From positions 288,001 to 352,000 of the forward strand of contig CAVQSP010000014.1 in assembly GCA_963715985.1 (NCBI GenBank): a stretch of DNA of 64,000 nucleotides, given 5' to 3'. Under the pieces are notes generated by a model. That model was not told the DNA's origin and ran no database searches. It saw nothing but the letters and a program-made list of their open reading frames with translations. The translations under genes were made by a program, and so were the position numbers. Of this stretch, positions 44,546 through 62,421 are shown in pieces. Every line of letters starts with the position of its first letter. The stretch's first letter is position 1. The stretch is from an uncultured Thermoleophilia bacterium (GTDB lineage Bacteria > Actinomycetota > Thermoleophilia > UBA2241).

Positions 44546-44633
44546 CCCTAACAAACGCATCAACCTGACGGCCACGAGCTACACTGCGGAAGTGAGGGTT
44601 GTTCGCCGCAGGCCTATGCGCAGCACGTTGGGC
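44546..44633 (+). repeat. attC1
   Basis: R'' CCCTAAC, L'' GCATCAACCTG ... L' CAGGCCTATGC, R' GTTGGGC. Confidence 0.85.
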
Positions 44634-44654
44634 AAACACCGGTGGAGGTTGGTC

Positions 44655-45134
44655 GTGATCGGACGTCGTCTCCTCGCAGCCTGCGCCGTCGCACTTGCCT
44701 TGTGTGCCGTGCTGCTGCTTTCCGCCTGCGGCTCCGGCAGCGAAGCGACGCCAGGTCCGCAGCCCACTTACGGCACGGCACGCGAGACCGTGGTCGCCTT
44801 CTACGAGGCGCACGCCGAGGGCCGCGAGGCCGACGCCTACGCGCTGCTCTCCGATCTGCATGACCCCAGCCTGACGCTCGACCAGTACGTGGGCGAGACG
44901 CGCTGGCGGCGCGACCTGCAGCTGCAGGAGGTGGGCCCGGCCGAAGCCGAGAGCTCCGCAGGCCGTCCCGAGTACTACGAGAGCCTGCACGACCTGCGGG
45001 AGGTCATGGTCGAGTTCTACCAAGCGCACGACGCGGAGGCCCGCGAGAGCGGAGACGCGACCGAGTTCGTGACGGTCGCGCGGGAGAGCCCGGACGGCCC
45101 TTGGCGCATCGTCGAGATCGGTACGGGGCCGTGA
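44655..45134 (+). CDS. Cassette 2: putative lipoprotein
   Basis: Lipobox LSAC after a hydrophobic signal; ends WRIVEIGTGP. Confidence 0.7.
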   Translation: MIGRRLLAACAVALALCAVLLLSACGSGSEATPGPQPTYGTARETVVAFYEAHAEGREADAYALLSDLHDPSLTLDQYVGETRWRRDLQLQEVGPAEAESSAGRPEYYESLHDLREVMVEFYQAHDAEARESGDATEFVTVARESPDGPWRIVEIGTGP

Positions 45135-45152
45135 AGGGAGCGGTGGAGTGTT

Positions 45153-45239
45153 GCCCGACAAGCGGATCAAGCTGATTCGTCAAAGCGTCGCGGCAAGACG
45201 GAGCCGCGGCGCTCGCAGCTTATCCGCGGTGCGTTAGCC
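45153..45239 (+). repeat. attC2
   Basis: R'' GCCCGAC, GGATCAAGCTG ... CAGCTTATCC, R' GTTAGCC. Confidence 0.85.
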
Positions 45240-45281
45240 CGAACCGATTCTGTCCACACACCCGTAGGGAGACTTCTCGCA

Positions 45282-46028
45282 GTGGACATTCCACGGATAT
45301 TCAACATCACTGAGAGTGCTCACCGCATCCACAACCCGATCACACCCGAGAAGCTTGCCACTCTCGGCGCGGCGCTGCGTCTGGAATCGGGGGTCCGAGT
45401 GCTCGACCTCGGCAGCGGTTCGGGGGAGATGCTGTGCACCTGGGCGCGCGATCACGGCGTCATCGGCACCGGCATCGACATGAGCCGGTTGTTCACCGAG
45501 CAAGCGAGACTCCGTGCTGAAGAACTCGGCGTCGCCGATCAAGTCAAGTTCATCCATGGCGATGCTGCCGGCTATGTCTCTGACGAGAAGGCCGATGTGG
45601 CAGCCTGTGTCGGTGCCACTTGGATCGCTGGGGGAGTTGCCGGCACTATCGAGCTTCTGGCGCGGAGCCTGCGCACCGGAGGGATCATCCTCATCGGCGA
45701 GCCCTACTGGCGGCAGTTGCCGCCGACGGAAGATGTTGCCACGGGGTGTCTTGCCAACTCGATCTCCGACTTTCTCATGCTTCCAGGACTTCTCGCGTCT
45801 TTCGGCCACCTTGGCTACGACGTTGTTGAAATGGTTCTCGCTGACCAAGACGGCTGGGACAGATACGAGGCGGCCAAGTGGCTCACCATGCGCCGATGGC
45901 TTGAAGCCAATCCCGACGACGAGTTCGCGAAGGATGTTCGAGCCAAACTGACCTCGGAACCCGAGCGCTACGCCGCTTACACGCGCGAATACCTGGGCTG
46001 GGGTGTGTTCGCGCTGATGCCGCGGTGA
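45282..46028 (+). CDS. Cassette 3: class I SAM-dependent methyltransferase, YjhP-like
   Basis: MDIPRIF..ES.HRIHNP, VLDLGSGSGEMLCTWARDHG, WDRYEAAKWLTMRRWL; resemblance to E. coli YjhP recalled, not searched. Confidence 0.85.
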   Translation: MDIPRIFNITESAHRIHNPITPEKLATLGAALRLESGVRVLDLGSGSGEMLCTWARDHGVIGTGIDMSRLFTEQARLRAEELGVADQVKFIHGDAAGYVSDEKADVAACVGATWIAGGVAGTIELLARSLRTGGIILIGEPYWRQLPPTEDVATGCLANSISDFLMLPGLLASFGHLGYDVVEMVLADQDGWDRYEAAKWLTMRRWLEANPDDEFAKDVRAKLTSEPERYAAYTREYLGWGVFALMPR

Positions 46029-46108
46029 CGCGTTGGCGCATCCGGCGGATCGTCAACGTCCAAGGTCATTGGCGGTCGGCGTGGGCCCAGATTGGCTACA
46101 CGCGGTCG

Positions 46109-46193
46109 GGCTAACAGAGGCATCAACCTGACGGCCAGAAGGTAAACTGACCAGAAGGCGCCTGCGCCGCAGGTCATGCCTAACACGTTGGGC
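46109..46193 (+). repeat. attC3
   Basis: R'' GGCTAAC, GGCATCAACCTG ... CAGGTCATGCC, R' GTTGGGC. Confidence 0.88.
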
Positions 46194-46231
46194 ACATCAC
46201 GACGCGGCCACGGGCCACATCGCCTCTGTGT

Positions 46232-46729
46232 CTACGGTGTCTGGGCGCGCGCTTTGATGATCTCGATCGCGGCCTTGCCGGTCATGTGCTCGATGGCGAG
46301 CTCTATCACGCACACTCTCTTCCATTCGCCATCGATCTCGGAATCCGCCGCTTCGAGGTAGTCGGGAGAGTACTTCTTCGCGAGGGATTCGAGGGCGTGT
46401 CTCTTCTCACTGTCCTCTGTGAGGACCCTCGCCCTGCCGAAGACGATGGCACTTCGGAAGTGCGTGGTGAACGTGCTCTGCACAACGTCGTCTGCAGCTA
46501 TCACGCAGAACGAGGCCTTCTCGTTCCGCTCGATAGCATCGATCTTGTGGCCGGCCTTCGCAGAGTGAAGGAAGAGCTTGCCGTCTTCGTAGGCGAAGCT
46601 CAGGGGGACCGCATAGGGATAGTCGTCATCACCGTGTACCGCCAAGACCCCCGAGGTGCAGGACTGCAGCATGGCGATCGTTTCCGTCTCCGGGAGTTCT
46701 TGCCTCTTGCGCCTCATCCCTCTGAACAT
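46232..46729 (-). CDS. Cassette 4 (reverse): Nim-like pyridoxamine 5'-phosphate oxidase family protein
   Basis: MFRGMRRKRQ, YPYAVPLS, HSAKAGHKIDAI, FTTHFRSAIVFG. Confidence 0.82.
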   Translation of the reverse strand: MFRGMRRKRQELPETETIAMLQSCTSGVLAVHGDDDYPYAVPLSFAYEDGKLFLHSAKAGHKIDAIERNEKASFCVIAADDVVQSTFTTHFRSAIVFGRARVLTEDSEKRHALESLAKKYSPDYLEAADSEIDGEWKRVCVIELAIEHMTGKAAIEIIKARAQTP

Positions 46730-46847
46730 GGTGCTTCTCTCTCTTCCGTAGTACTGGCCAGTGGAGGCTGGCATCCGGGCGCGCAGCCACGTTCGACAGC
46801 TCACATACTAGCCGAAGCTGTGGCGCCCTGAGGGGGACTGAAGCGAC

Positions 46848-46937
46848 GCATGACAAGCGCATCGAGCAGATTGTTCCGCAGGCTATGATGTCGGCGACAG
46901 CGCAGCGAGCCAACTGCTCATGCGCGAAACGTCAGGC
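46848..46937 (+). repeat. attC4
   Basis: R'' GCATGAC, GCGCATCGAGCAG ... CTGCTCATGCGC, R' GTCAGGC. Confidence 0.8.
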
Positions 46938-46944
46938 CCACGGA

Positions 46945-47730
46945 GTGCCGTTGAAGCGACCGCGTCTCATGGTCCACACTGTGGCCTCAGCCGATGGCCG
47001 GGTGTCGCTCGGCGCCAATCGTACGGGATTCGACGATGTTGGCGACGAGCGCTGGCAGGCGATCTGGGCTTCTGACACCAGCCTGGAGGAGAGTGTTCGC
47101 GCCCTCGTGTCTCGCTATCAGCCCCAGGTGCTGCTTGAGGGCAGCGGCTCGTTCGTAACGGAGGGCGCGAGTCTCTCGGAACTCCCTCCTGCGGAACTCG
47201 GCCCAGCGGAGCTGCATCGGGACTTCCTGCCCGGTGAGGTGGTGCACGCTCCGGACCACCGCGGATGGTTCGCGGTAGTGGATGGACGCGGGCGGATGCG
47301 GGCCGGGGTGAAGGAGTTCCCCGGTTGGGAGGGATGGCGCACGCTTCACCTCGTCTCCCATGCCACCCCGCCCGAGTACCTCGCCTTCCTCAGACGCTGT
47401 GGGATCCCCTACCTCATCGCGGGACGCGGGCATGTCGACCTCGAGCAGATCATGGCGAAGCTGAGGTCCCTCCTCGGCGTCAATTGCGTCGTTTGTACTG
47501 CCGGGAGCAGGCTGAACGGCGCTCTGCTGCGAGCGGGCCTGGTCGACGAGGTGAGCCTCGTGCTTCTGCCGGCGGTGATCGGGGGGTCCGAGACGCCGCA
47601 GCTGTTCCGCTGCGCTGAGCTGGGTCCTTCGGACTCGCCCACTCATCTCGAGTTGTTGTCCGTCGAGGGTGAATCCCAAGGGCGCGTCTGCCTCCGCTAT
47701 CGAGTCGTCGGAACGTCGAGCGAGGCCTGA
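46945..47730 (+). CDS. Cassette 5: RibD C-terminal / dihydrofolate reductase family protein
   Basis: ASADG, VVDGRGR, LNGALLRAGLVDEVSL..LP; stop TGA lies in R''. Confidence 0.8.
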   Translation: MPLKRPRLMVHTVASADGRVSLGANRTGFDDVGDERWQAIWASDTSLEESVRALVSRYQPQVLLEGSGSFVTEGASLSELPPAELGPAELHRDFLPGEVVHAPDHRGWFAVVDGRGRMRAGVKEFPGWEGWRTLHLVSHATPPEYLAFLRRCGIPYLIAGRGHVDLEQIMAKLRSLLGVNCVVCTAGSRLNGALLRAGLVDEVSLVLLPAVIGGSETPQLFRCAELGPSDSPTHLELLSVEGESQGRVCLRYRVVGTSSEA

Positions 47731-47814
47731 CAAGCGCATCAACCTGGCGCGTCTGGGCGCTGCGGTCGTATCCTCCGGCCGCAGCCCGTGCAGGTCATCC
47801 GCGGTGCGTTGGGC
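47725..47814 (+). repeat. attC5
   Basis: R'' GCCTGAC, GCGCATCAACCTG ... CAGGTCATCCGC, R' GTTGGGC. Confidence 0.85.
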
Positions 47815-47845
47815 AGAGCGGCGCATGGGTGAGGGTGAGAGGCGT

Positions 47846-48316: not shown

Positions 48317-48331
48317 TGCAGCCGGGCTCGC

Positions 48332-48416
48332 GCCTGACAAGGGCATCGAGCAGAATGCCAGAAGGCAGACTGACCTGAGAGGGTATCCGCGCCTGCTCAT
48401 GCCCAATACGTTGGGC
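48332..48416 (+). repeat. attC6
   Basis: R'' GCCTGAC, GGGCATCGAGCAG ... CTGCTCATGCCC, R' GTTGGGC. Confidence 0.85.
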
Positions 48417-48490
48417 GTAGCAGGCTCGCAGCGTCTTCCACGGCCGAGGCGGGGTAGTATCCTTGTCGTGATGTCTTAGGGAGGTGAGTG

Positions 48491-48702
48491 ATGTCGGTCG
48501 TCTTTCGAATCGAGTTTGAGCGCGAGACGGACGGGCGCTGGATCGCCGAGGTAGTCGAGCTGCCTGGCGTGTTCGCCTACGGCGCGACCGAGGACGACGC
48601 CATCGCTCGCGTGCAGGCGCTGGCCCTGCGCGTCGTCGCTGACCGGCTCGAGAACGAGGAAGCCGGCGCGAGTATCGGAACATCTCCTTCGCCGCTGCGT
48701 GA
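48491..48702 (+). CDS. hicB: Cassette 7: HicB-family antitoxin (frameshift near the 3' end)
   Basis: IEFERETDGRWIAEVVELPGVFAYGATEDDA. Confidence 0.8.
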
Positions 48703-48911
48703 GCGACTGGCTCAGCACGCGCGCCAACGCTCGTCCTCGCCGCCCTCCTGCGCATCGGCTGGACGGTCGAGCGACAGACCGGCTCACACAAGGTCCTCTC
48801 GCGCCCGGGCAGGCTCAAGCTCGTCTTCGCCTTCCACGACCGCGAGGGATCGGGCCGCGGATGCTCGCGCGCCACGCCAAGCACAGCGGCCTGAGGCCCG
48901 GGGACCTGTGA
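48699..48911 (+). CDS. hicA: Cassette 7: HicA-family toxin (frameshifted)
   Basis: Joined frames read ..LLRIGWTVERQTGSHKVL...FAFHD..IGPRMLAR..K.SGL. Confidence 0.75.
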   Translation: MSDWLSTRANARPRRPPAHRLDGRATDRLTQGPLAPGQAQARLRLPRPRGIGPRMLARHAKHSGLRPGDL

Positions 48912-48921: not shown

Positions 48922-49009
48922 GCCCAACCAAGCGCATCGTGCAGAACGCCACGGGGTCTGCCGCACGGCGACAGGCACGCCGCGTCTGCCCATGCGCGAT
49001 GCGTCGGGC
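48922..49009 (+). repeat. attC7
   Basis: R'' GCCCAAC, GCGCATCGTGCAGA ... TCTGCCCATGCGC, R' GTCGGGC. Confidence 0.8.
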
Positions 49010-49475: not shown

Positions 49476-49577
49476 ATGAAGGGCGTTCCCGGCATGGACT
49501 GCATCAATCCCTACGGCGGATCGTAGTAACGCAGAACGCCGCAGAACATCATGACAGCGCGCTCTTGAGGATGTGAT

Positions 49578-49620
49578 GCCCAACCACTCGGTCAAGCGGA
49601 CCCGCCTGCGGCAGTCCGTC
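49578..49620 (+). repeat. attC8, truncated (left arm only, short-type attC)
   Basis: R'' GCCCAAC, then CACTCGGTCAAGCGGACCCGCCTGCGGCAGTCCG; no L'/R' follows. Confidence 0.6.
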
Positions 49621-49701
49621 CGCCGGACCGCAGACATGTCGAAGGACAGTCTTCCGCCAGGCTCACCGTGGAGACCCCATCGTCGTAGGCAGCGCGTAGG
49701 C

Positions 49702-49979
49702 ATGAGACTGTGGCTGGGCTATCTCCCCGGCGTCATCGTGCTCGGTTGGCCACTCTCGAGGGCGCTTGGATCCGGGCTCGCGTACCTGGCCGTTGCACTG
49801 GCCTGGATGGCAGCGGGCCTGCTCGTCCAGTTCTGGGCAGGGTCCTTTCGCTGCCCTCGATGCGGGAACCCCTTCTACCGGAACGGGGGTATCAGGGCTC
49901 GTGGGCACGCAGGTGTGCTCATTGCGGCCTCCTCATATGGGCTGAGTGTCGAGAATGCCTGACAAGGCGTTCGAGCTGA
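49702..49979 (+). CDS. Cassette 9: small 2-TM protein with CxxC..CxxC zinc ribbon (probable frameshift)
   Basis: RCPRCGNPF in one frame, RRCAHCGL in another. Confidence 0.5.
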
Positions 49980-50043
49980 GTCACGTAGTCGGCGCGCAAG
50001 ACTGTGGCGTGGGCTCTCGCAGCTCAACGCCCGGACGTTGGTC
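49957..50043 (+). repeat. attC9
   Basis: R'' GCCTGAC, GGCGTTCGAGCTG ... CAGCTCAACGCC, R' GTTGGTC. Confidence 0.85.
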
Positions 50044-50388: not shown

Positions 50389-50691
50389 GCCGCGGGGTCC
50401 TCTTCACGCCTGCCGCCCGCGAGCAGTTCCTCGCGACGCTGGCCTACATCGCTGCCGACGACCCGGCCGCGGCGCGAGGTCTGCGCGACCGCGCCGCCGC
50501 CTCACTCTCGCGCCTCGCCGACTACCCCGAGTCGGGCCGCGTGCTGCCCGAGTTCCCGACCTGCCGTTTCGCGAGGTCGTCGTACCGCCGTACCGCTTCT
50601 TCTACCGCGTGAAGGACGACGCGGTCTGGGTCGTCGCAGCCTGGCACTCAGCCCAGCTCCAGCAGAGCCGGAGGATGTTGGGCGGGACTGA
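50385..50691 (+). CDS. Cassette 10: RelE/ParE toxin (frameshifted)
   Basis: YIAADDPAAA, L.DYPESGR.LPE; alternative frames give PYRFFYRV..DAVWVVAAWH. Confidence 0.8.
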
Positions 50692-50773
50692 CAAGCGGAT
50701 CTGTCGAGGCGCCTGCGCGCGGTATCCTTCAGCCGCGAGCGCGGGCTCGCAGGTCATGCGCGGTGCGTTAGTC
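50686..50773 (+). repeat. attC10
   Basis: R'' GACTGAC, AAGCGGATC ... GCAGGTCATGCGCGGTGC, R' GTTAGTC; left arm partly degenerate. Confidence 0.75.
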
Positions 50774-50786: not shown

Positions 50787-51416
50787 GTGGTTGCTGTGTA
50801 CCTCGCCAAACCAGAGGTCCCGACCGGCCAGGGAGTCCTGGTCCTGCACTCGTGGTGGGGCTTGAACGGGTTCTTCCGCGACCTGTGCGACCGGCTGGCA
50901 TCAGACGGCTTCGTCGCACTCGCGCCGGATCTCTACGACGGCAGGACCGCGAGCACCATCGGTGAAGCGAAAGCCCTACGTGCAAGGGTGGGCGCCTCCA
51001 GGAAGGAGTCCGCCTACCGCTACCTCATCCGCATGATCGGCGAGCTCGAAGCGCAGGCTGCCGGGGACCTTGCCCTGCTCGGCTTCTCGATGGGCGGACA
51101 TTGGGCCTACTGGCTCTCTCGGCGCCCTGAGCTTCCCATCTCGAAGACGGTGACGTTCTATGCCGCACGCGACGGGGACTACTCGACAAGCCGCTCAGCC
51201 TTTCTCGCTCACTTCGCCCAGACTGATGAGTGGGTGTCGGCTACCGATGTGCGCAAACTCGAGCGCAGCTTGGCCAAGGCCGGTCGCGAGCATGTGTTCC
51301 ACACCTACGAGGGCACCGGGCACTGGTTCTTCGAGTCCGACAGGCCTGAGTACGACCCTGAGGCCGCGGCGCTCGCATGGGAGAGGACGCATGCCTTCCT
51401 GCGGAGGTCGGGCTGA
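50787..51416 (+). CDS. Cassette 11: dienelactone hydrolase family protein
   Basis: HSWWGLN, APDLY, GFSMGG, YEGTGHWF, AWERT; stop TGA lies in R''. Confidence 0.88.
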   Translation: MVAVYLAKPEVPTGQGVLVLHSWWGLNGFFRDLCDRLASDGFVALAPDLYDGRTASTIGEAKALRARVGASRKESAYRYLIRMIGELEAQAAGDLALLGFSMGGHWAYWLSRRPELPISKTVTFYAARDGDYSTSRSAFLAHFAQTDEWVSATDVRKLERSLAKAGREHVFHTYEGTGHWFFESDRPEYDPEAAALAWERTHAFLRRSG

Positions 51417-51501
51417 CGAGCGCATCAGGCTGACGCGCAGCAAGCGCCGGCGTCGTGTTCTGGGACCGTCGCACGCGCAGCTCATGCGCGGAGCGTTCGG
51501 C
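51411..51501 (+). repeat. attC11
   Basis: R'' GGCTGAC, GCGCATCAGGCTG ... CAGCTCATGCGC, R' GTTCGGC. Confidence 0.82.
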
Positions 51502-51946: not shown

Positions 51947-52036
51947 ACCGAACAAGCGGCATCGAGCTGATGCGCCGCAGGGTCTTCAGCACCCGGGGAG
52001 CGCTGCGTGCGCAGCGTCATCCGCGGTGCGCTAGAC
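51947..52036 (+). repeat. attC12
   Basis: R'' ACCGAAC, GCATCGAGCTG ... CAGCGTCATCCGCGGTGC, R' GCTAGAC. Confidence 0.72.
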
Positions 52037-52692: not shown

Positions 52693-52782
52693 GTCTGACC
52701 AGCGCATCGACCAGATGCGCCCAACGGTGTCTGTAGGAGAGTCCAGGCGCAGCCCGCGCAGGTCATGCGCGGTGCGCCGGCT
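52693..52782 (+). repeat. attC13
   Basis: R'' GTCTGAC, GCGCATCGACC ... GGTCATGCGCGGTGC, R' GCCGGCT. Confidence 0.75.
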
Positions 52783-52804: not shown

Positions 52805-53260
52805 GTGAGTCGGGTCGACGATGCGGCGCAGCTCTTCACAGACGGCAAGTCCTGTTCGCAGGCCGTGTTCGCCGCGTTCGCCCCGTCACTCGGAATGGAT
52901 GCGGCTGAAGCCCTCAGGCTCGCTGCGGGCTTCGGTGGCGGCATGCACATCGGCGGCACGTGTGGAGCGGCAACGGGGGCGGTGCTCGTGCTCGGGCTCC
53001 GGTATGCCGGCGACGACTGCGATGCGGGCCGCAAGACGGTCATGGCCGCAGTCGACGCGTTCTTCGCGCGATTCCTGGCGCAGGTCGGTGCAACAGACTG
53101 TCCCGCGATCCTGGAATGCGACATTCGCTCGTCAGAGGGGGCGGAAACCGTGCGAGAAAAGGGCTTGCGTGAAGCGCGATGCCTGCCCGCAGTATGTGCG
53201 GCGGCCCAGATCCTCGAGGAGATGCTGGAGTCGGACCGCCCAACAAGCGCATCAACCTGA
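52805..53260 (+). CDS. Cassette 14: C-GCAxxG-C-C family redox protein
   Basis: SCSQAV, GFGGG...TCGAATG, TDC, C...V; the ORF reads into attC14. Confidence 0.85.
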   Translation: MSRVDDAAQLFTDGKSCSQAVFAAFAPSLGMDAAEALRLAAGFGGGMHIGGTCGAATGAVLVLGLRYAGDDCDAGRKTVMAAVDAFFARFLAQVGATDCPAILECDIRSSEGAETVREKGLREARCLPAVCAAAQILEEMLESDRPTSAST

Positions 53261-53324
53261 CTCGCCCACGCGCTGCGCTTCGCTGTCCGCGCGGCGCTCG
53301 CAGGTCATACGCGGTGCGTTAGGC
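53238..53324 (+). repeat. attC14
   Basis: R'' GCCCAAC, GCGCATCAACCTG ... CAGGTCATACGC, R' GTTAGGC. Confidence 0.88.
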
Positions 53325-53339
53325 CCACAAGGGGGTCGC

Positions 53340-53804
53340 ATGTCGGGGCTCGAGCTGAAGGTCCCTCCGGATGTAGTCTGGCTCGCAGTCGGGGTGATAA
53401 TGTGGCTCGCCTCGAAGGTGACGCCGGGGCTCACCTTCAGATTGCCGCTCCGGCTTCTCGTGGCTGGCGCATGTGTCGCCCTCGGCGTGGGACTCGTCGT
53501 TGGCGCCCGGGTCATGCTGGACCGCGCGCACACGACCTGGCATCCGACCGAGCCCGAGCGCACCACGAGCTTGGTCAGCGGCGGGGTCTTCCGGTTCAGC
53601 CGCAACCCCACATACCTCGGAATGCTGCTCGTCCTCGTCGGTTGGGGGGTGGTCCTGGCCAACCCGCTCGCGTTTGTCCTCGCGGCGATCTTCGCGTTGT
53701 GGATGAGCCGCTATCAGCCCCGGAGGCAGAGGTCAACGGCATTCGGTATGTCGCCATGCGCAAGGAGCGTCCTGCGCGTGGCTGACAAGATGGCATCAAC
53801 CTGA
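53340..53804 (+). CDS. Cassette 15: isoprenylcysteine carboxyl methyltransferase (PEMT/ICMT) family protein, C-terminus disrupted
   Basis: LELKVPP, TTSLVSGGVFRFSRNPTYLG. Confidence 0.8.
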   Translation: MSGLELKVPPDVVWLAVGVIMWLASKVTPGLTFRLPLRLLVAGACVALGVGLVVGARVMLDRAHTTWHPTEPERTTSLVSGGVFRFSRNPTYLGMLLVLVGWGVVLANPLAFVLAAIFALWMSRYQPRRQRSTAFGMSPCARSVLRVADKMAST

Positions 53805-53869
53805 CTCGAGAAAGCGATCGCGGCAAGACGAAGCCGCGGCGCTCCGAGGTTATGCGCGGTGCGTCAGGC
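53780..53869 (+). repeat. attC15
   Basis: R'' GGCTGAC, GCATCAACCT ... AGGTTATGC, R' GTCAGGC; centre nearly identical to attC2. Confidence 0.82.
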
Positions 53870-54814
53870 AGTCCTGTTCACCGTCACTGCCACGTTGCCC
53901 CGCTTGTGCCCAAGCTCCACGTACCTGTGGGCGGCGACGATCTGGTCGAACGCATAGCACCTGTCGTTGACCGGTGTGATCCGCCGCGCTTCCACGAGTC
54001 CTCTCACCTTGTCGAGGCGCTGGGAGCTCAACTCGAGGGACCCATCGTCGATCGAGACGAACGTGCCGCCGTCCGCAAGCGCTCGCCGGCACGCCTCCTT
54101 GAGCGCGGATGTCCTTCGCTTTCCGACCGCGTCGAGCACGACGTCGTACCGTTCCAGCTCTGACAGCGACTGCTCGTCGGTGTAGTCCAGCACTCGGTCT
54201 GCTCCCAGCGCGGTCACGAAGCGAGCATTGCGTGCGCTGCACACACCAGTGACGTCGGCACCGAGATGCTTCGCGTACTGCACCGCGATCGTCCCCGCGG
54301 TGCCGGACGCCCCGTACACGAGCACCTTCTGGTTCGGTCTGACGCCGGCCTTGTCGAGATACTGCAACGCCAGCAGACCACCGTACGCGGCCGAGGTAGC
54401 TTCTTCGTGGCTGGTGTTGGCCGGCTTCAGCGCGATGCAGCCCTGCTTCGAGTCGTCTTCCTTCATGCACTTGTAGTCTGCATACGCGCCGAGAGAGAAG
54501 CCGGTGAGGCCGAAGACCTGATCGCCGGCCTTGAAGCGCCTCGTCCTCGCGCCCACCTGCACGACTTCTCCGGAGAGCACCTCACCGATGATGGGGTGCC
54601 TCGGCCTGGTGATGCCGAGCATCAGGCGCATCGGAATGCGGAAGCGCAGTGGGATCTGCGAGCCCCTGATGAAGAGGTCGCTGTTCGTCACCGAGGTGGC
54701 GTAGATCTTGATCAGGACTTCGTCGTCTCTTGGCACGGGCCTCTCGTACTCCACGATCTTCAGCACGTCGGGAGGGCCGTACTTCGTACAGGCGATAGCC
54801 TTCATGGTCTCCAT
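53864..54814 (-). CDS. Cassette 16: NAD(P)-dependent zinc-type (quinone reductase-like) alcohol dehydrogenase
   Basis: YGPPDVL, YGASGTAG, LGADRVLDY, GHKRGNV. Confidence 0.88.
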   Translation of the reverse strand: METMKAIACTKYGPPDVLKIVEYERPVPRDDEVLIKIYATSVTNSDLFIRGSQIPLRFRIPMRLMLGITRPRHPIIGEVLSGEVVQVGARTRRFKAGDQVFGLTGFSLGAYADYKCMKEDDSKQGCIALKPANTSHEEATSAAYGGLLALQYLDKAGVRPNQKVLVYGASGTAGTIAVQYAKHLGADVTGVCSARNARFVTALGADRVLDYTDEQSLSELERYDVVLDAVGKRRTSALKEACRRALADGGTFVSIDDGSLELSSQRLDKVRGLVEARRITPVNDRCYAFDQIVAAHRYVELGHKRGNVAVTVNRTA

Positions 54815-54841
54815 GGATACTCCTTCGTGATGCGGTAGCTG

Positions 54842-55574
54842 CTAGCTCGCAGGGCTCGGGTCGGTCAGGCAGGGTGCTCCGGAGTCGACGAGCCTTCACG
54901 CCCCTCACGAGGAGCCACAGCGACAGCCCCACTTCGGCGACGAAGCTCACGACGAGCCCGGGAGAGGTGATCGCGGGGTGGGCCGGCAGTAGCAGGGCCT
55001 GAACGAACCAGATCAGGACGGCGATCCCGTCAAGCAGCAGAAGGACGCCCAGGAACCGGGGAAGGTAGCCGGACTTGTAGACCAGGTAGCCGAGCGGGAA
55101 CAGCCACGTGCCGAAGAACAGCTGGGCGGTGACGAAGCCCGTCTTGTACACGTTGATGGACAGGTACCCCAGCCCCTCCAGCTGGGCCGCCGAGTAGGCC
55201 TGCATGTGACTGCCCGCGTCGCCCATCAGGAGCGCGGAGAGCAGCGGGAACATGCTCGCGCACTGTATGGCGACACCGACCGTGTTGAGCAGGAGGAAGA
55301 GCAGCGCCAGATGCTTGTTGACCGGTCGCAGAAGGACGTAGAGACCCCAGGCGGCCATGAGGAAGAGGAACGCCGAGATCAGCCCGACGACAAGAGCCAG
55401 GCGGAAGGATGATGGGTTCGTGACGACCGACTGGTAGACCTGCTGCGCGCTGCCCAGCCCGATGTGCCCCAGCCTGTCGGCGAGCACGGACGTCAGGATG
55501 AACGCGAGGTAGCAGCCGCCCGTGATCCTGGCCAGCCTGTCCGGCGCCAGGCGATCTGTGATGCTGTGGGACAT
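54842..55574 (-). CDS. Cassette 16: DUF4386 membrane protein (3' end uncertain)
   Basis: ARITG..YL, LYVLLRPVNK.LA, FFGTWLFPLGYLVYKSGYLP. Confidence 0.8.
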
Positions 55575-55609
55575 TGCGGTCCCTCCTCTTCTGTCGTTCG
55601 ACGTGCGGA

Positions 55610-55924
55610 TCACGAGATGCTCGCTGACGGCTTGGCGCCCGTCTCTTTCCGAGCGGCGGTGGCGTTGGAGTGGGGAGTCCTGGGGCACGGGGCCCGTGCG
55701 ACGGAGAGCAGCGGCACGCCCAGATCGCGGATCCTCCTCAGCAGGCCATGCAGGGCGGCCTGATCGGCTACCGGTCCGCTGAGGAGCGTCGTGCCGTCCT
55801 CTTTCGGCGTGACGGTCAGGCCCTCGAACCAGTCTGACCATTCGCGGTCGAGATGGCCTTCGATCCTGATCTCGTAGATCGTCGGCTGCCCTGGATCAGG
55901 TTGGGGATCAGGTGTGCTCGGCAT
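55610..55924 (-). CDS. Cassette 16: small conserved hypothetical protein (ACT-like)
   Basis: YEIRIEGHL...WSDWFEG...DQAALHGLL.RIRDLG.PLLSV. Confidence 0.75.
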   Translation of the reverse strand: MPSTPDPQPDPGQPTIYEIRIEGHLDREWSDWFEGLTVTPKEDGTTLLSGPVADQAALHGLLRRIRDLGVPLLSVARAPCPRTPHSNATAARKETGAKPSASIS

Positions 55925-56013
55925 CGGCCTGTGTCCGTTCTCGCGGGTGATGACGGTGCGTGCCACCAGCTCGGTGTACGGGCAGGCTAGGCGTGCCGGA
56001 GTGCCTGCGGTAG

Positions 56014-56055
56014 ACACTTCGGTGTGGGTCGGAGTGTTGTTCTGAGTGTTGTTCT
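56014..56055 (-). promoter_or_regulatory. Putative operator: 12-bp tandem repeat plus short palindrome
   Basis: GAGTGTTGTTCT twice (56032-56055) and ACACTTCGGTGT (56014-56025), between the regulator and its downstream genes. Confidence 0.45.
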
Positions 56056-56106
56056 GGGGTGATGAGGAGCGGAGCGCGGAGGCCGGCGGGGCGCGGGGGG
56101 CTGCGT

Positions 56107-58780
56107 CTACAGCAGGCCCAGCTCCCCGGCGCGGGCGACGGCCTCGGTGCGCCGCTGCACGTTGAGCTTCTCGAAGATGCGGCGGTTGTGGCCCTTGACC
56201 GTGTCCAGGGCCAGGAAGAGCCGCTGGCCGATCTCCCGATTCGAGAGGCCTTGGGCGATCAGCCGCAGGACTTCGAGCTCGCGTTGGCTGAGCGGCTCGG
56301 CCGACGACGAAGGACCGGGAGCGGGGGATGCCGGAGCGGAGGCTGCCGGTCGTCCGCCCTTCGTCTCCCGCCGGAAGGCGGCCAGGAGCCGGCCTACGTA
56401 GTCCGGCCGGATACCCTGCGCGGCCGCCGCGGACAGGAGCTCCGCCATCGGAGCCCCTTCATCCACGAAGAGACGGATGAAGCCGCCGGGCTCGGCCAGC
56501 GCCAGCGCCTCGCCCAACGAGTGCGCCGCCGCGCCCTCGTCCGCCCCGCCCTCTTCCTCGAGCGCGTGCTGGGCAACGGCTTGCAGCACTAGCGTCCTCA
56601 GCCGTTCGTCCGCCCAGCCCTGGGCCTGCAGGCGCTGGCCCAAGGGTCCCAGCACCGCCAGCGCTGCGCCCGGATCGCCCTGGGCGATGAGCACGCGCGC
56701 CTGGCTGTGCGGGAGGTCGTACTGCCCGGCAAGTCGAGCGGCAGCGGCGACCTGGTCCTGTCTGATCAAGATGAGGACCTGCGCGGCGGCGATCTCCGGC
56801 AGCCGCATGATGAAGGCGTTGTCCTGCGCGGATCGTTGCGCCTCGGCCAGCATCGTCGCCGCGCCCTCCGCATCGCCCCGGGCCAGTGCCACGCGGGCGA
56901 GGAAGACGTCGCCGGCGATGGATCGGTCGATCGCGCGGTCGTAGAGCCGGGCCAGATCCCGGCTCTGCTGCGCGTGCCGTTCGGCGGCATCCAGGTCGTC
57001 CCACTCGTAGGAGATGGAGGCCAGGCTGAGATGCGCTTCCTCGACGTTCGGCAGCGGCTGGTCGCCGGCGAGCTCCAGCACTCGCCGGTAGCTCTCGGCC
57101 GCCTGGTGGAGCTGGTTGTCCAGCTCCTGCACCTTGCCCAGGGCCTCGGACGCCAGCATCCTCGAGAACACGTGCCCGGATCTCTCGGCGAGCTCGACAC
57201 ACTCCCGGCAGGCGCGAGCGGCGGCCGACCCGATCGCCCCCAAAGAGCTGGGCGTACGTCGCCGCCCACGCGGCGGTGAAGCGGAAGGGCAGGTTCTCGG
57301 GGCGCAGGTACTCCTGGGCACGACGTGCCTGGGCGGCCATCGTCTGGACGTCGTAGCGGGTGAACGCCAGGGTGGCCCTGGCACAGGCTATCTGCCCGAT
57401 CAGGTCGCGGACCTCCTCGTCGAGGTCAACGCCCTGCAGCGCCTGCTCGGCCGCCTGCAGCTTCTCCTCGACCCCCGTCGTCTGCGCGGCCATCAACGTC
57501 ACCGTGGCGGAGCGCACCAGCAGCCGGGGTCGTGCCTCGAGCACCGCTCCTGGGAGGGAGGCCAGCCAGTCCAGGATGGGCATCAACACGCTGCGCAGAT
57601 GCAGGTCCATGTCCGAGCTGTCGATGAGACGCTCCGCGCGCTCCACGTCGTCGGCTGCCGTCGCGTGCTGGAAGGCCTCGAGGAGCCGGCCCTCGCGCTC
57701 GTACCATTCACTGGCCCGGAGGTGCAGGTCGGCGATCTCCTCCGCCGAGGCACTCTGCCCCAGCCGGCGCTGCAGCAGGTCGCCGAAGAGATGGTGGTAG
57801 CGGAACCAGCGCCGTTCGTCGTCCAGAGGGATGATGAACAGGTTCGCGCGCTCTATGGCCCGCAGGGTCTCATCGCTCGCGCCGGCCGGGGCGCGCAGGA
57901 GCGCGTCGCACAAGGGGCCGCACAGGCGGTCGAGGACGGACGTGCGCAGCAAGAACGTCTGGACCTCGGCGGGCTGTCGCTGCAGGACCTCCTCGAGCAG
58001 GTAGTCCAGCACGAAGCGGTGGCTCCCGGTGAAGGAGCGGATGAAGCCGGCGGCATCCGGGAGTCCCTGGAGGGAGATGGCCGCCATCTGCAGTCCGGCG
58101 ATCCAGCCCTCGGTGCGGGTCTCCAACGCCTCGATGTCGTCTGCTGAGAGGTCGAGACCCGCCGCCCGCTTGAGGAACTCGGTGGCTTCAGCGGGCGTGA
58201 ACCGCAGGTCGGCGGCGCGCAGCTCGGTCAGCTGGCCGCGGGCGCGCAGCCGGGCGAGGGGCAGACGTGGGTCCTCGCGGGTGGCGATGACGAGATGCAT
58301 CCGCGGCGGCAGGTGCTCGAGCAGAAACGCGAGGGCCTCGTCGTCCGGCCTGGAATCGAGCACATGGTAGTCGTCCAGGATGAGCACGAAGTCGTCGGGG
58401 ACGGTGCTGAGCTCATTGACGATGGTCGTGAGGATCGACTCGATCGGCGGCGGCTGAGGCGACTGGAGCGCGACCATCACCCCGCTGCCGATCTCCGGTG
58501 CGATCGTCCGCGAGGCGGCGACGAGGTAGGTCAGGAAACTCGAGGGATCGTCATCTCTCTGATCGAGCGACAGCCAGGCGACCGGTCGCCCACACCCGAC
58601 GGCCCATTCGGCGACCAGTGTGGTCTTGCCGAAGCCCGCGGGTGCAGAGACGAGGGTCAGCTGCCCGTGCGTGCCCTCGTTCAGCCGCTCCATCAAGCGG
58701 GGGCGGGCGACTACGCCGGGCCGAGGCGGCGGGACGTACAGCTTCGTCAAGAGAAGTGGGGCAGGCGCTCCGTTGGTCAC
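56107..58780 (-). CDS. Cassette 16: MalT-like LuxR-family STAND transcriptional regulator (frameshift near 57230)
   Basis: TKLYVPP, APAGFGKTT, LILDDYH, TEGWIAGLQ, RYHHLF; C-terminal LSQRELEVL..IAQGLSNREI HTH. Confidence 0.88.
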
Positions 58781-58945
58781 AGCCGCTCCAGGAGCCGAGT
58801 CACGGCAAACTCAGGACCAGTCTATCCGTTCCTGCCTTGCCGTTCCCTCCGAGTAGGCGGAGCGCGCCCATCCCCGGACGGTGGGGATAGCGTATCGTTC
58901 CACTTCAGGAAGGGCCATGTTGCAGGTGGTCTCTGGATTCGCGCT

Positions 58946-59032
58946 ACCTGACGATCGCGTCAACCTCGCGCGGCCCAGCGCCGCGATACACTGCGGTCGC
59001 AGCGCGCGCAGGTCTTGCGCTGCACGTTGGAC
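58946..59032 (+). repeat. attC16
   Basis: R'' ACCTGAC, CGCGTCAACCT ... CAGGTCTTGCGC, R' GTTGGAC. Confidence 0.72.
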
Positions 59033-59062
59033 CGACATCACAGGAGACGCATCGGGGGGACC

Positions 59063-60034
59063 ATGAAGGCAGTCGTGCAGACCGAGTACGGCACGCCGGA
59101 CGTCATGCGGCTCGCGGACGTCGACACTCCCTCAGTCCGCGAGAACGAAGTCCTCGTGCGCGTTCGTGCCGCCTCCGTGAACCCGCCGGACTGGGCCGGA
59201 GTGCATGGCGCGCCGTACATCGTCCGCCTGGCCTTCGGGCTGCGCAGGCCCAAGCTCGGCATCCGCGGCACCGACCTGGCGGGCACAGTCGAGGCGCTCG
59301 GCGCGAACGTGACACGGCTGTCTGTCGGTGACGAGGTCTTCGGCGTCGGCGTCGGCACCTTCGCGGAGTATGCGGTCGCAAAGGAAGAGCACCTCGCGCC
59401 GAAGCCGGCCGGCATCACGTTCGAACAGGCTGCAGCCACGGGGATGGCCGCATTGACCGCGCTCCAGGCGCTGCGTGACGCCGGTCGCATCCGGGCGGGA
59501 CAGAAGGTGCTCATCGTCGGCGCCGGCGGCGGGATCGGCACGTTCGCCGTCCAGATCGCGAAGTCCTTTGGCGCGCACGTGACCGGCGTCTGCAGCACGT
59601 CGAAGCAGGAGCTGGTCCGCTCGCTCGGCGCCGACAACGTCATCGACTACACGGCGGAGGACTTCACGCAGGGCGGAGAACGCTACGACCTCATCTTCGA
59701 CAATGTGCTGCGACACTCGCTGTCCGAGCTCCTGCGTGCGCTCAATCGCAGCGGCACACTCGTGCCCAACGGCGGTCAGTTCTACAAGCGCTGGTTCGGG
59801 AGCGTCGGTGTCCTCATGGTCAAGGCGCCGCTGCTCTCGCTGTTCGTGCCGCAGCGGATCCGCGTGTGCACGGAGCGCCCAAGGCAGGACGATCTGCTCG
59901 TTCTGAAGCAACTCATCGAGTCCGGGAAGCTGATGCCGGTCGTCGGCCGGACGTACCGTCTGGACCAGGCCGGCGAAGCCATCTCCCACTTCGGGGAGGG
60001 GCACGCAGAGGGCAAGGTCGTCATCACTCCCTGA
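59063..60034 (+). CDS. Cassette 17: NAD(P)-dependent zinc-type alcohol dehydrogenase
   Basis: YGTPDV, ASVNP.D, GAGGGIGTFAVQIAK, GHAEGKVVI. Confidence 0.9.
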   Translation: MKAVVQTEYGTPDVMRLADVDTPSVRENEVLVRVRAASVNPPDWAGVHGAPYIVRLAFGLRRPKLGIRGTDLAGTVEALGANVTRLSVGDEVFGVGVGTFAEYAVAKEEHLAPKPAGITFEQAAATGMAALTALQALRDAGRIRAGQKVLIVGAGGGIGTFAVQIAKSFGAHVTGVCSTSKQELVRSLGADNVIDYTAEDFTQGGERYDLIFDNVLRHSLSELLRALNRSGTLVPNGGQFYKRWFGSVGVLMVKAPLLSLFVPQRIRVCTERPRQDDLLVLKQLIESGKLMPVVGRTYRLDQAGEAISHFGEGHAEGKVVITP

Positions 60035-60058
60035 GGCTGGGGAGCGGACCCGCCTGCG

Positions 60059-60147
60059 GTCCAGCAAGCGCATCGACCCGACGTGCCCAAGCCTTCTGTA
60101 GTGACCTCAGACCGCAGCCCGCTCAGGCCATGCGCGGTGCGATAGAC
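60059..60147 (+). repeat. attC17
   Basis: R'' GTCCAGC, GCGCATCGACC ... GGCCATGCGCGGTGC, R' GATAGAC; same family as attC13. Confidence 0.7.
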
Positions 60148-60174
60148 CGCCCACTCAAGCCAGACGACTCGCCC

Positions 60175-60570
60175 TCAGCTCGCGGCCTTGCGCACGATGG
60201 CGGCGAGCTTGGCCTCGGTCGCGTCGTCCAGCGCGGTGAAGAACCAGGCCGATTCACGGAGCTGGTGCGGCGCGCCCTCCTCGAGGCTGAGGTTCGCCTT
60301 GTCGGTGAGGCCGAACGTCATGTATGTGTCCGCGCGGAAGAAGCAGACGACCGGACCGTCCTTCGCGTACGCCGGCATGCCGTACCACGTGGTCGCCTGC
60401 AGAACGGGCGCGCTGCGCAGGACGAGTGCGTGGAGACGCTCGCCCATGGCGCCGTAGGGTTCCGGCATCGCGGCGATCTTCGCGAGCGCTGCAGCCTCGC
60501 TGTCACCCTTCTTCACAGCCGGCTTCGCGGCCTTCTTCCTCGCCTCTTTGCCCGCCTTGTTCTCAGCCAT
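60175..60570 (-). CDS. Cassette 18 (reverse): DUF1801/YdhG-like protein
   Basis: TWYGMPAYAKDG.VVCFF...Y.TFG..D.ANL. Confidence 0.8.
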   Translation of the reverse strand: MAENKAGKEARKKAAKPAVKKGDSEAAALAKIAAMPEPYGAMGERLHALVLRSAPVLQATTWYGMPAYAKDGPVVCFFRADTYMTFGLTDKANLSLEEGAPHQLRESAWFFTALDDATEAKLAAIVRKAAS

Positions 60571-60733
60571 TGCTACTCCCGCTTCCGGTGTCTTGTCGTT
60601 GGGGCTCCAAGTCCGGTTGCCGCTCGGACCCGCGATCGGGGTCGCGGCATCTCACGGAGCTCGTATGTGATACCCGCACGGCTCGGTGGCCAAGAGCACC
60701 GCTCGCCCGGAGGCTCGCGGCACGCCGGTGGCC

Positions 60734-60816
60734 GTCCGACAGGCGCATCGAGCGGACGGCGCACGCTACACTGGTCCCATCGCGCGTGAGCGCCGCTCAT
60801 CCGTGGTGCGTTCGAC
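60734..60816 (+). repeat. attC18
   Basis: R'' GTCCGAC, GCATCGAGCGG ... CCGCTCATCC, R' GTTCGAC. Confidence 0.78.
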
Positions 60817-60847
60817 AGACCCAAGACCCTCGGCAGGAGAGGACTCC

Positions 60848-61835
60848 GTGTCCGTTCAGCCTGACATCCATCGCCACGTGTGCGTCTTCGGCGTCGGCGG
60901 CGTCGGCGGCTACTTCGGCGGCCGACTCGCGTGGTGGCTGGCGAGTCAGACTGCTCCGACCTGGCACGTCCATTTCGTCGCGCGTGGCGCGCATCTGGCC
61001 GCGATCGACAGTCGCGGTCTTGAGCTGGACACTCCCGGCGCGCGGCTGACGTGCGTGCCTGCTTCTGCGTCTTCGGACATGAAGCGCTTGCCCGTTCCCG
61101 ACGTGGTGCTGCTGTGCGTCAAGGGCTACGGCCTGGACGAGGCGCTGCGGCAGATCGCCGCCCACTGCGGCGAGGACGCCGTGGTCATCCCGCTGCTGAA
61201 CGGCGTGGACATCCACGAGAGGATCCGCGTTCATCTCCCCAAGGCTCGCGTGCTTCCCGCGTGCGTCTTCGTCGGCACTCACGTGGACCGGCCCGGGGTC
61301 GTCTCACAGGCGGGCGGCGACGGGGTCATCGTCCTCGGCGGCGACCCCGATGACCCTGACTTCGTGCCGGTGTCGTTCCTCTCGCTGCTCGAAGATGCCG
61401 GCATCCGTTTCACCTGGTTCGACGACCCCCGCCCCGCGATCTGGGAGAAGTACGTGTTCATCTCGGCGCTTCGGGCTGGTGACCGCCGCTTCGCGGAAGA
61501 CCCTCGGCGCTGTCCTCACAGACGCCCGTCTCCTCGAGGATGCTCGCGAGATCATGCGCGAGGTCGCCAGTCTCGCGGTTCGCGAGGGTGTCGTTCTCGA
61601 TCCCGAAGTCGTCTCCACTGCCGTGGCCAAGGCACGTGGATTCCCCTTCGAGACAAAGACGTCGTTTCAGCGAGACGTGGAGTCGGGGGGCCAGGACGAA
61701 GGTGACCTGTTCGGGGGTACGATCCTTCGTCTGGGGAGGCGGCACGGGGTGCCCACCCCGACGACACAGCGCGTCTACGCTCAGGTGCGTGAGGGCGCAA
61801 CAGGGGCACTCTCGGCCGAGCGCAGCTCCGGGTAG
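60848..61835 (+). CDS. Cassette 19: ketopantoate reductase (ApbA/PanE) family protein, frameshift near 61465
   Basis: GVGGVGGYFG, ARGAHL, CVKGY, LNGVD, WEKY, TSFQRD...E.D.FGG. Confidence 0.85.
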
Positions 61836-61892
61836 AATCCGCACATGGCGGTGACCCCCACGTGTCATAGGCCTCGGGACCAAGGAAGAGAA

Positions 61893-62297
61893 ATGGGCGT
61901 GAAGAAGAGCGGATCGCAGGAGAGCACGTCTCCTTCGCAGCTGATAGACGCGAGGATCAAGGAGCTGGGCGACTGGCGTGGCGAGATGCTCGGCCGGCTC
62001 CGCACCTTGGTCAAGGAGGCCGATCCCGAGATCATCGAGGAGTGGAAGTGGAGAGGAGTCCCGGTCTGGTACCACGACGGGATGGTCTGCACCGGCGAGA
62101 CCTACAAGGACCATGTGAAGATGACCTTCGCCAAGGGCGCGGCTCTGGAGGATCCTTCGGGTCTCTTCAACTCCGGTCTCGACGGGAACGTCAGGCGGGC
62201 CATCGACTTCCATGAGGGCGAGCAGATAGACGAGCAGGCGTTGAAGACTCTCGTTCGCGCCGCCGTCACTCTGAACAAGTCCACAGCCCGAAGCTGA
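61893..62297 (+). CDS. DUF1801 domain protein
   Basis: LIDARIKELGDWRG, EEWKWRGVPVW, FAKGAAL.DP.GLFN. Confidence 0.88.
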   Translation: MGVKKSGSQESTSPSQLIDARIKELGDWRGEMLGRLRTLVKEADPEIIEEWKWRGVPVWYHDGMVCTGETYKDHVKMTFAKGAALEDPSGLFNSGLDGNVRRAIDFHEGEQIDEQALKTLVRAAVTLNKSTARS

Positions 62298-62337
62298 TCC
62301 ACGGACTGGCGATAGGCCGCAAGGCCCGCCCATTGAC

Positions 62338-62421
62338 GCCTGACAAGCGCCTCGCGCGGGCGGCCGGAGCCTGAAGCCACCTGTAGGCGCGTAGGCCGCC
62401 GTCAAGGCACTCGCGTCCGAC
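62338..62421 (+). repeat. attC19, degenerate terminal site
   Basis: Left end GCCTGACAAGCGC matches attC5; right arm eroded, possible R' GTCCGAC. Confidence 0.45.

Follow-up and report, generated by a model that had tools for sequence, protein, structure and literature searches.

Derived GAC and GTC core triplets in the attC array of a chromosomal integron with a damaged integrase in an uncultured Thermoleophilia bacterium

Overview

We analysed a 64,000-nt stretch of DNA (hereafter the window; G000:C14:288001-352000) from the genome assembly of an uncultured Thermoleophilia bacterium, in which an integron is found. It comprises an integron integrase gene (intI, 42275-43258, forward strand), a putative attI site, 18 strong attC sites and one weak site (attC8); the array ends at 62421. 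The cores of the attC sites depart from the AAC/GTT pair, as most R'' boxes end in GAC and several R' boxes begin with GTC. These variants are real, derived and specific to this lineage, and the integrase is damaged. The explanation that we consider probable, although with considerable reservation, is a lineage-specific erosion of the attC sites of a chromosomal integron after the loss of its integrase, mainly at words which contain TpA (T followed by A) and are rare in the genome.

Identification of the attC sites

The assembly (4.35 Mb, 22 contigs, 70% GC) resembles a metagenome-assembled genome (MAG), with a completeness of 88.8% and a contamination of 7.3%. An earlier note on the sequence had placed 19 attC sites in the window and suggested that a covariance model be built from them. 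All 19 lie where it placed them, and its coordinates were used to locate 18 sites, whose aligned bottom strands gave the covariance model R1. By construction, R1 scores its 18 training sites at 53-91 bits. It also finds four additional attC sites elsewhere in the same genome. At E <= 1e-5 it has matches, up to 59 of them in a single genome, in 31 of 36 further genomes of the genus and in none of 24 that belong to other families of the class. Since attC8 scores just 13.6 bits (E 0.5 at 49591-49635), 18 solid sites and one doubtful site are counted.

The 18 sites measure 83-91 nt, lie on one strand and are 545-5166 nt apart; attC sites are usually about 57-141 nt long. They show the imperfect inverted repeats R''-L''...L'-R' with an unpaired spacer and extrahelical bases. 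Pairing in the R and L helices is seen in 85.0% of the cells of the alignment, compared to 76.2 +/- 1.4% when shuffled (0 of 500 shuffles reach the observed value) and 17-38% with slid partners, and changes on both sides are found at 10 of the 17 modelled helix pairs. The Rfam scan of the window found no attC family, its sole match being a tRNA gene at 11143-11226. Folds of single attC sequences gave z-scores from -2.4 to +0.9 and are uninformative in such GC-rich DNA.

Core triplets of the array

The R'' box ends in GAC at 12 of the 18 sites (2, 4, 5, 6, 9, 10, 11, 13, 15, 16, 18 and 19), in AAC at five (1, 3, 7, 12 and 14; six if attC8 is read by eye) and in AGC at site 17. Concerning R', GTT is present at 11 sites, GTC at four (4, 7, 15 and 19), GCT at the 12th, GCC at the 13th and GAT at the 17th. 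Both sets of variants agree with what the earlier note had listed, its sixth AAC being that of the doubtful attC8. The conserved AAC/GTT cores are thus not a trait of this array (AAC 5/18, GTT 11/18). Compared to the genus consensus, most conserved letters are kept in 67-100% of the sites and three positions stand out: the first A of AAC, kept in 33% (G in 12 sites), position 8 of L', kept in 17% (C in 15 sites; already C in 18% of relatives), and the third letter of GTT, kept in 72% (C in five sites). The cleavage-proximal AC of R'' is present in 17 of the 18 sites, and the extrahelical C of L'', whose retention had also been pointed out, in 15.

The congener set consists of 20 array stretches of 17 congeners, with 258 attC sites at E <= 1e-6. 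Of these sites, 237 have AAC and six have GAC in R'', and in R' 245 have GTT and three have GTC. The difference in GAC between our array and the congeners (12/18 vs 6/258) gives a Fisher p of about 1e-12, which is overstated since kin are not independent. As R1 was trained on the GAC-rich sites of the window, any detection bias favours GAC. The first A of R'' is held at 97% in the 17 congeners, as tightly as the other two letters. The GC content of the array is 0.67 and that of the congener loci 0.66-0.70; congeners of the same GC have canonical cores, so high GC does not call for GAC, and a GC content higher than that of the relatives is rejected as a cause.

Patterns of the cores were also counted over all 54 genomes of the genus. 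The AAC pattern gave 488 hits in 53 congeners with near-zero controls. The exact GAC pattern was swamped by background (controls of similar size, and one word found once in almost every genome), and its counts were of use solely as a pointer to G064 and G069. Among the additional genomes with a hint of GAC, it is found in 8 of 30 sites of G064, four of six of G069 (plus one GAT), 3 of 27 of G074 and 1 of 12 of G076; these four genomes were picked by the feature itself, therefore their rates are not an unbiased sample.

Comparison with orthologous cassettes

The last 250 bases of each cassette of the window, with the start of its attC site, were compared with the first locus set. All four GAC sites which have orthologues through R'' face AAC, in 13 genome-level comparisons (attC10 in eight genomes, attC11 in two, attC13 in two and attC18 in one). 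The flanks are otherwise identical at these orthologous sites, e.g. GACTGACAAGCGGATC vs GACTAACAAGCGGATC. With their neighbouring letters unchanged, these four GAC triplets are point changes in this lineage. Other positions are more mixed: the AGC of attC17 (GTCCAGC) is common to the G015 orthologue, and the orthologues of attC3 vary between AAC, GAC, AAT and GAT. In G069, cassette 3 and both flanking sites are 90.4% identical to those of the window. At the syntenic attC2 and attC3 sites of these two genomes three of the four outer triplet letters differ, each changed in a different genome, which indicates that changes continued independently. The flank identities of G000, G069 and G064 are too similar to resolve a clade.

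The possibility that the variants are consensus or base-calling errors of a MAG, for example at a methylated motif, was raised in part by the earlier note as read errors. It could draw on the MAG-like state of the assembly described above, on several single-base indels in the array (those at 57223, in a C run, and at 61468 are absent from related metagenome contigs) and on the fact that all variants are transitions. We regard it as extremely improbable. GAC is found in independent assemblies (G069 and G064), in one case in the orthologue of attC10. Another run yielded a contig that spans attC4 (46703-47187), and among the 11 of the contig's 12 differences that are listed there is no change at the G at 46852. 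Also, attC2 (GAC) and attC14 (AAC) share their surrounding letters, which a motif-driven error would not separate, and a base-calling error at a methylation motif is unlikely on the same ground. Lastly, rpoB and rpoC are intact. The metagenome contigs compared come from wetland or soil, are short and 90-99% alike, and through their listed differences inform a minority of the 12 GAC positions.

The integrase gene

The intI gene of the window contains the Pfam domains PF13495 and PF00589. TIGR02249 matches it in two pieces, with 271.7 bits on the C-terminal, catalytic piece (cut-off 265) and 133.6 bits on the N-terminal piece. The gene therefore belongs to the IntI subfamily but is interrupted: up to about 42691 the N-terminal part keeps one frame, a second frame then carries the catalytic part as far as about 43213, after which the first frame resumes for the last 15 codons. 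The nearest solved structure to the intact copy of a congener is VchIntIA (2a3v, E 8e-90). Besides the two frame switches, the codon at 42356-42358 is CAT (H), where the relatives have TAC (Y). In the alignment to 2a3v this residue is equivalent to Y26 of VchIntIA and Y37 of IntI1. Among 76 hits of the loci it is Y in 74 and H in two, the other H being in a locus which matches only IntI residues 1-72. In IntI1, where Y37 is no more than 5 angstroms away from the GTT strand, the Y37F change was reported to reduce recombination by a factor of more than 1e5 (PMC2811028).

Since rpoB and rpoC have one open frame each, the assembly is not riddled with indels, and the breaks of intI and of the cassette genes are taken as real. 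Absence of the gene is also seen. In G069 there is no intI between the conserved flank and the array (G069:C2), and the homology of the flank ends at window position 42205. In metagenome contigs from four runs, 42205 is joined directly to 43224 or 43228, which cuts out nearly exactly intI; such joints indicate that versions of the locus without intI exist in nature. The joints in the metagenome contigs are short-sided and mixed, and none could be assigned to excised cassettes.

One alternative of the earlier note was an IntI whose core specificity is relaxed or has shifted in a way that suits a genome of high GC. The findings speak against this: congeners of the same GC have AAC/GTT sites, as have congeners with an intact intI, the putative attI has GTT, the intI of the window is broken, and G069, the other GAC-rich genome, has no intI at this locus. 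Also, all four GAC sites compared with the first locus set face AAC in the orthologous cassettes, which the note itself had named among the findings that would count against its reading; the later G069 orthologue of cassette 10, with GAC, is the exception. The sole base-specific contact reported for IntI1 is that of K171 (K160 in VchIntIA) with T3 and A2' (PMC2811028). The equivalent lysine is unchanged in the IntI of the window, and a change of this residue is rejected as the cause. An R-to-H change at the K101 equivalent is likewise rejected, as G070 has it too, and so does G006, which carries AAC sites. The only partial exception to this picture is G064 (8/30 GAC).

Probable erosion of the array

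In the explanation that we prefer, the window would contain a sedentary integron in the chromosome of an uncultured Thermoleophilia-type actinobacterium, and this integron would no longer work. With two frameshifts in intI and a Y-to-H change against the GTT strand, the selection that holds AAC/GTT would have lapsed. The attC sites would then drift to the word usage of the genome, the flips lying at the consensus words with TpA, and GAC and GTC would be scars of decay and no working alternative core. Integrase loss would have come first, and compositional pressure, not selection, would set which position changes. This supports and refines the second alternative of the earlier note, erosion towards GC, in that the derived changes lie mainly at the rarest TpA words of the genome and likewise in G069, which has no intI.

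The word counts of the genome are as follows: CTAAC (R'') is found in 187 copies and CTGAC in 6146 (ratio 32.9), CTTAT (L') in 188 and CTCAT in 7470 (39.7), and GTTAG (R') in 187 and GTCAG in 6146 (32.9), whereas at the 13 other conserved A/T positions the ratio of variant to consensus word varies from 1.4 to 12.2. Transitions at the CTAAC, CTTAT and GTTAG positions are present in 12, 15 and five of the 18 sites, and elsewhere in zero to seven. GAC is mostly found after T, both in the window (10/12 vs 2/6 otherwise) and in G064 (8/19 vs 0/10). The number of TpA per attC is 1.44 in the window and 1.5 in G069, compared to 2.58 in the 17 congeners (window vs congeners, Mann-Whitney p 4e-4). Four of the 12 TGA triplets created by GAC serve as stop codons of cassette open reading frames (ORFs). 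The array has the look of decay, with a lower complementarity between cassette starts and ends and frame breaks in several cassette genes, and G069 (no intI, GAC in 4/6 and GAT in 1/6) is a second case.

A number of observations weigh against erosion as the explanation. The frameshifts of intI are known from the assembly alone, and if they are consensus errors only the Y-to-H change marks inactivity. Across the 16 positions, the word ratio and the number of changes correlate weakly (Spearman 0.33, p 0.22). The GTTAG of R' has the same ratio as CTAAC yet changed far less (two of seven sites with the A context became GTCAG). The pairs of the L boxes are Watson-Crick in 13-18 of the 18 sites, much like in the relatives. 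The cassette bodies, for which orthologue coverage is patchy (0-14 genomes per position), carry own-specific changes at 1.5-2.7% of the sites where the relatives are unanimous. They show no TpA hotspot (0/53 and 2/95 TpA sites changed) and no bias from AT to GC: where three or more relatives are unanimous, 18 changes run from A:T to G:C and 49 from G:C to A:T; a lineage-wide mutation bias of either kind is thus not seen in them. As 12 of 18 is far above this background, plain neutral drift is not an obvious source, and the fast change at one position is not fully explained.

Further such points come from other genomes. Of those with a broken or missing intI, G001 (split intI) has AAC in 35 of 35 sites, G013 (split intI) GAC in one of nine, G009 (fragmented intI) GAC in none of seven, and G017 (no intI match) AAC in eight of nine and no GAC. 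Erosion therefore needs an added assumption, the time since inactivation. G064 has GAC in 27% of its sites (8/30) yet contains two intact-looking intI genes (positions 2-315, no stops). Also, the G069 orthologue of cassette 10, which was fetched later, has GACTGAC like attC10, therefore that change may be inherited and not parallel. Based on the imperfect fit (the weak correlation, the less changed R', the cassette bodies, the four genomes with a broken or missing intI and G064), we hold erosion with the reservation given above and keep tolerance of the variants and selected locking, both discussed below, as live rivals. It was also considered that the hairpins persisted as RNA or top-strand structures once the integrase was lost, in which case A-to-G in R'' would be silent as a G-T pair. 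This was rejected, as over all 17 helix pairs the top strand holds a share of 0.56 of the wobble pairs in the window and of 0.53 in the 17 congeners.

Proposed compensation between cassette ends

The earlier note had read GTC and GAC as compensated pairs. Its two examples are correct, as cassette 5 starts with GTCAGGC and ends with GCCTGAC, and cassette 16 starts with GTCAGGC and ends with ACCTGAC. In the array as a whole, cassettes whose third start letter is C end in GAC in two of four cases (5 and 16, not 8 and 14), whereas those with T do so in 9 of 14; there is no excess over the base rate, and covariation is unsupported here. Over 309 neighbouring pairs in 22 genomes, the start of a cassette matches its own end at 6.34 of 7 positions, vs 5.2 of 7 between the two cores of one attC. 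This better match of own start and own end is the classical integron pattern. The complementarity of R'' to the start of its own cassette is weakened in the genome of the window (5.35/7 vs 6.46/7 in genomes other than G000, G064 and G069). In the 22 genomes, cassettes starting with GTC end in GAC in four of five true cases (attC8 added by hand), compared to 20 of 271 starting with GTT; all four cases come from the two GAC-rich genomes, and the covariation at the triplet which the note had proposed to look for across relatives finds no support. The triplet pair of 8 of the 18 sites is mismatched (A-C) on the bottom strand, the one that recombines.

These counts bear on the possibility that the variants are tolerated in a working or recently working system, with GAC and GTC sites that recombine and a putative subclade of G000, G069 and G064 which carries more of them. 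The third triplet position would then be the one that matters least to the integrase. A compensated GTC attC was reported to recombine with a wild-type attI at the wild-type level by IntI1 (PMC2811028), the AC of R'' and the L-box helices are kept in the array, the lysine equivalent to K160 is conserved, and G064 has two full-length intI genes alongside its GAC sites. The near-identical copy of cassette 1 described below (636/644) hints at recent movement or duplication. However, the intI of the window is broken, with Y-to-H where Y-to-F abolishes the activity of IntI1 (PMC2811028). Most of its GAC triplets are uncompensated, as the eight A-C mismatches show, and the only non-complementary triplet among those assayed in that work, at the second position, lowered recombination about 370-fold (PMC2811028). 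The A held at 97% in the congeners is not a free position in working arrays, and G064 is a bin of 1070 contigs whose intI and GAC sites may come from different strains. On balance tolerance seems to us unlikely.

The bench data also allow for selected locking, in which the T3-to-C3 change of R'' would block attC x attC excision while capture at a canonical attI stays, making the array a one-way store. For IntI1, GTC is harmless in one partner, lowers recombination 150-fold in both, and in vitro, cleavage of a GTC attC that is part of an attC x attC complex is not detectable (PMC2811028). The putative attI keeps GTT, the excess is at one position with the structure kept, and parallel changes are found in at least four unrelated cassettes. 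Nevertheless, many mutations would lock a cassette and a single position is not predicted; twelve separate sweeps would be required, and a dead intI leaves nothing to select. The bias to the T context and the change at L' position 8 (15/18) point to word usage and not to recombination, and the published mutants are compensated (PMC2811028), whereas most sites of the window are not. Locking by selection is therefore judged very improbable. It is quite improbable, too, that the A-to-G change of R'' is a natural form of the engineered T3-to-C3 change which made the integron of the putative G000/G069/G064 subclade a one-way store before or instead of integrase loss, with G064 as a living intermediate.

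Other features of the array

The coordinates of the features are presented in Table 1. The stretch of G018 at the same place is 78% identical to the region of small ORFs between intI and the putative attI; the ORF at 43577-43813 has no Pfam match.

Table 1. Features of the integron, with positions in the window, core boxes of the attC sites and R1 scores
Feature	Position	Strand	R''	R'	R1 score (bits)	Remarks
intI, broken	42275..43258	+				PF13495 + PF00589; TIGR02249 in two pieces; three-frame reading
Small ORFs between intI and putative attI	43306..43813	+				By reading; two ORFs
Putative attI crossover GTTAGCG, cassette 1 start	43935..43941	+				Canonical GTT; proposed from duplicated cassette
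attC1	44546..44633	+	CCCTAAC	GTTGGGC	59.8	
attC2	45153..45239	+	GCCCGAC	GTTAGCC	84	Syntenic G069 site GCCCAAC / GTCAGCC
attC3	46109..46193	+	GGCTAAC	GTTGGGC	69.7	
attC4	46848..46937	+	GCATGAC	GTCAGGC	62	Covered by metagenome contigs
attC5	47725..47814	+	GCCTGAC	GTTGGGC	80.6	TGA = stop of ORF 46885-47730
attC6	48332..48416	+	GCCTGAC	GTTGGGC	69.8	
attC7	48922..49009	+	GCCCAAC	GTCGGGC	62.2	
attC8, doubtful/degenerate	49578..49655	+	GCCCAAC (by eye)		13.6	No assignable R'
attC9	49957..50043	+	GCCTGAC	GTTGGTC	66.6	TGA = stop of ORF 49573-49962
attC10	50686..50773	+	GACTGAC	GTTAGTC	57.3	
attC11	51411..51501	+	GGCTGAC	GTTCGGC	76.3	TGA = stop of ORF 50787-51416
attC12	51947..52036	+	ACCGAAC	GCTAGAC	63.8	
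attC13	52693..52782	+	GTCTGAC	GCCGGCT	70.9	Orthologues in two genomes GTCTAAC
attC14	53238..53324	+	GCCCAAC	GTTAGGC	91	
attC15	53780..53869	+	GGCTGAC	GTCAGGC	67.1	TGA = stop of ORF 53402-53785
Cassette 16 body, 5.1 kb	53870..58945	-				Several genes, incl. 773-aa AAA/MalT-TPR regulator-like ORF
attC16	58946..59032	+	ACCTGAC	GTTGGAC	64.5	
attC17	60059..60147	+	GTCCAGC	GATAGAC	81.4	
attC18	60734..60816	+	GTCCGAC	GTTCGAC	63.8	G020 orthologue GTCCAAC
attC19, last site of the array	62338..62421	+	GCCTGAC	GTCCGAC	53.4	Weakest of 18

Cassette 1, an addiction-module pair (window 43932-44575), has a second copy in the same genome at G000:C11:614328-614971, identical in 636 of 644 bases (99%). The two copies have one mismatch in the body and diverge from R'' on, so that one cassette body is found with two different attC sites. 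After the C11 copy come two attC sites (614942-615028 and 615689-615748), and there is no intI in the vicinity. It starts three bases upstream of the window GTT at 43935. Since the duplicated cassette begins there, GTTAGCG at 43935 is a candidate attI crossover, with a canonical GTT.

The products of the cassettes include an addiction-module antitoxin, a methyltransferase, a pyridoxamine-oxidase-like protein, RibD_C and SnoaL proteins, a dienelactone hydrolase and a zinc dehydrogenase. Cassette 3 (methyltransferase, 45282-46028) stands out in the metagenome contigs, with a summed depth in the thousands vs tens in the neighbouring bins, and has orthologues of 90-96% identity in many genomes of the genus; it seems to be a very widespread cassette or gene. 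R1 finds no internal attC in the body of cassette 16 (53870-58945), and the same block, with 86-91% identity, is part of the arrays of G004, G070 and G019 or lies close to them.

Frame changes midway in small cassette genes were noted by reading at 48490-48900, 50390-50690 and 53319-53785; judged from their translation, these genes are HicA-like, ParE-like and a methyltransferase-like membrane protein. Single-base indels between the window and related metagenome contigs are found at 57223, 61468, 44613, 60149 and other positions. That at 57223 lies inside the regulator-like gene, and that at 61468 in a gene which reads as frame-broken. The single-base indels of the array may be real pseudogene lesions or consensus errors.

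Distribution in the genus and relation to known integrons

The integron is widespread in the genus. Of the 54 genomes, 29 have an intI that scores above the cut-off of the family, mostly full-length and in one frame, and the 19 kb upstream of intI are syntenic beside the arrays of G069, G011, G036, G001 and others, with 72-87% identity. The records of the relatives are labelled as uncultured Thermoleophilia MAGs. In the window, as well as in G036 (C16), G018 (C72) and G011 (C13), intI is transcribed toward the cassettes, an atypical layout, and the array lies downstream on the same strand. Surveys of complete genomes did not report any complete integron for the Actinobacteria (PMC4889954, PMC9024848), and a review lists Actinobacteriota among the integron-bearing phyla (PMC8618304). 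No Thermoleophilia integron was found in the literature by title or abstract. A syntenic chromosomal integron across a genus of Thermoleophilia (Actinomycetota) may be the more notable by-product of this analysis.

The array itself is well observed and an ordinary kind of thing, as both arrays in decay next to intI pseudogenes and attC clusters that have no integrase are already known (PMC4889954), and so is tolerance at the third triplet position, from bench work (PMC2811028). Its use lies elsewhere. Odd triplets in one array should not be taken as a new specificity until sister arrays and orthologous cassettes are compared. Also, about 350 sites of one attC family in 22 genomes form a natural experiment on the attC letters that are held by selection. 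The first letter to go at integrase loss would be the outer base pair of the triplet, the one most dispensable in bench work.

Three known systems are close to this integron. The engineered GTC/GAC attC sites of the class 1 integron (Frumerie et al. 2010, PMC2811028) have the same triplet base pair changed, T3 to C being R'' AAC to GAC on the top strand. That work found the triplet less absolute than its conservation implies and described K171, Y37 and R112 as the contacting residues of IntI1. However, its sites were changed on both arms and are paired, whereas the sites of the window, which are known from sequence alone, have an unpaired A-C in 8 of 18 cases and a broken integrase. The attC clusters that lack an integrase (CALIN) and the integrons with an inactivated integrase of Cury et al. 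2016 (PMC4889954) are alike in that the arrays lie by an intI pseudogene (G000) or have no intI (G069) and the cassette genes are partly broken; in the present case each decayed letter can be compared with about 330 sister sites of the same attC family, and the decay is concentrated at one triplet position and not spread. Treponema-type integrons, in which transcription of intI toward the cassettes is known (PMC3607928), likewise have intI and cassettes on the same strand with the array downstream, whereas the integron of the window belongs to a different phylum and has two small ORFs between intI and the putative attI.

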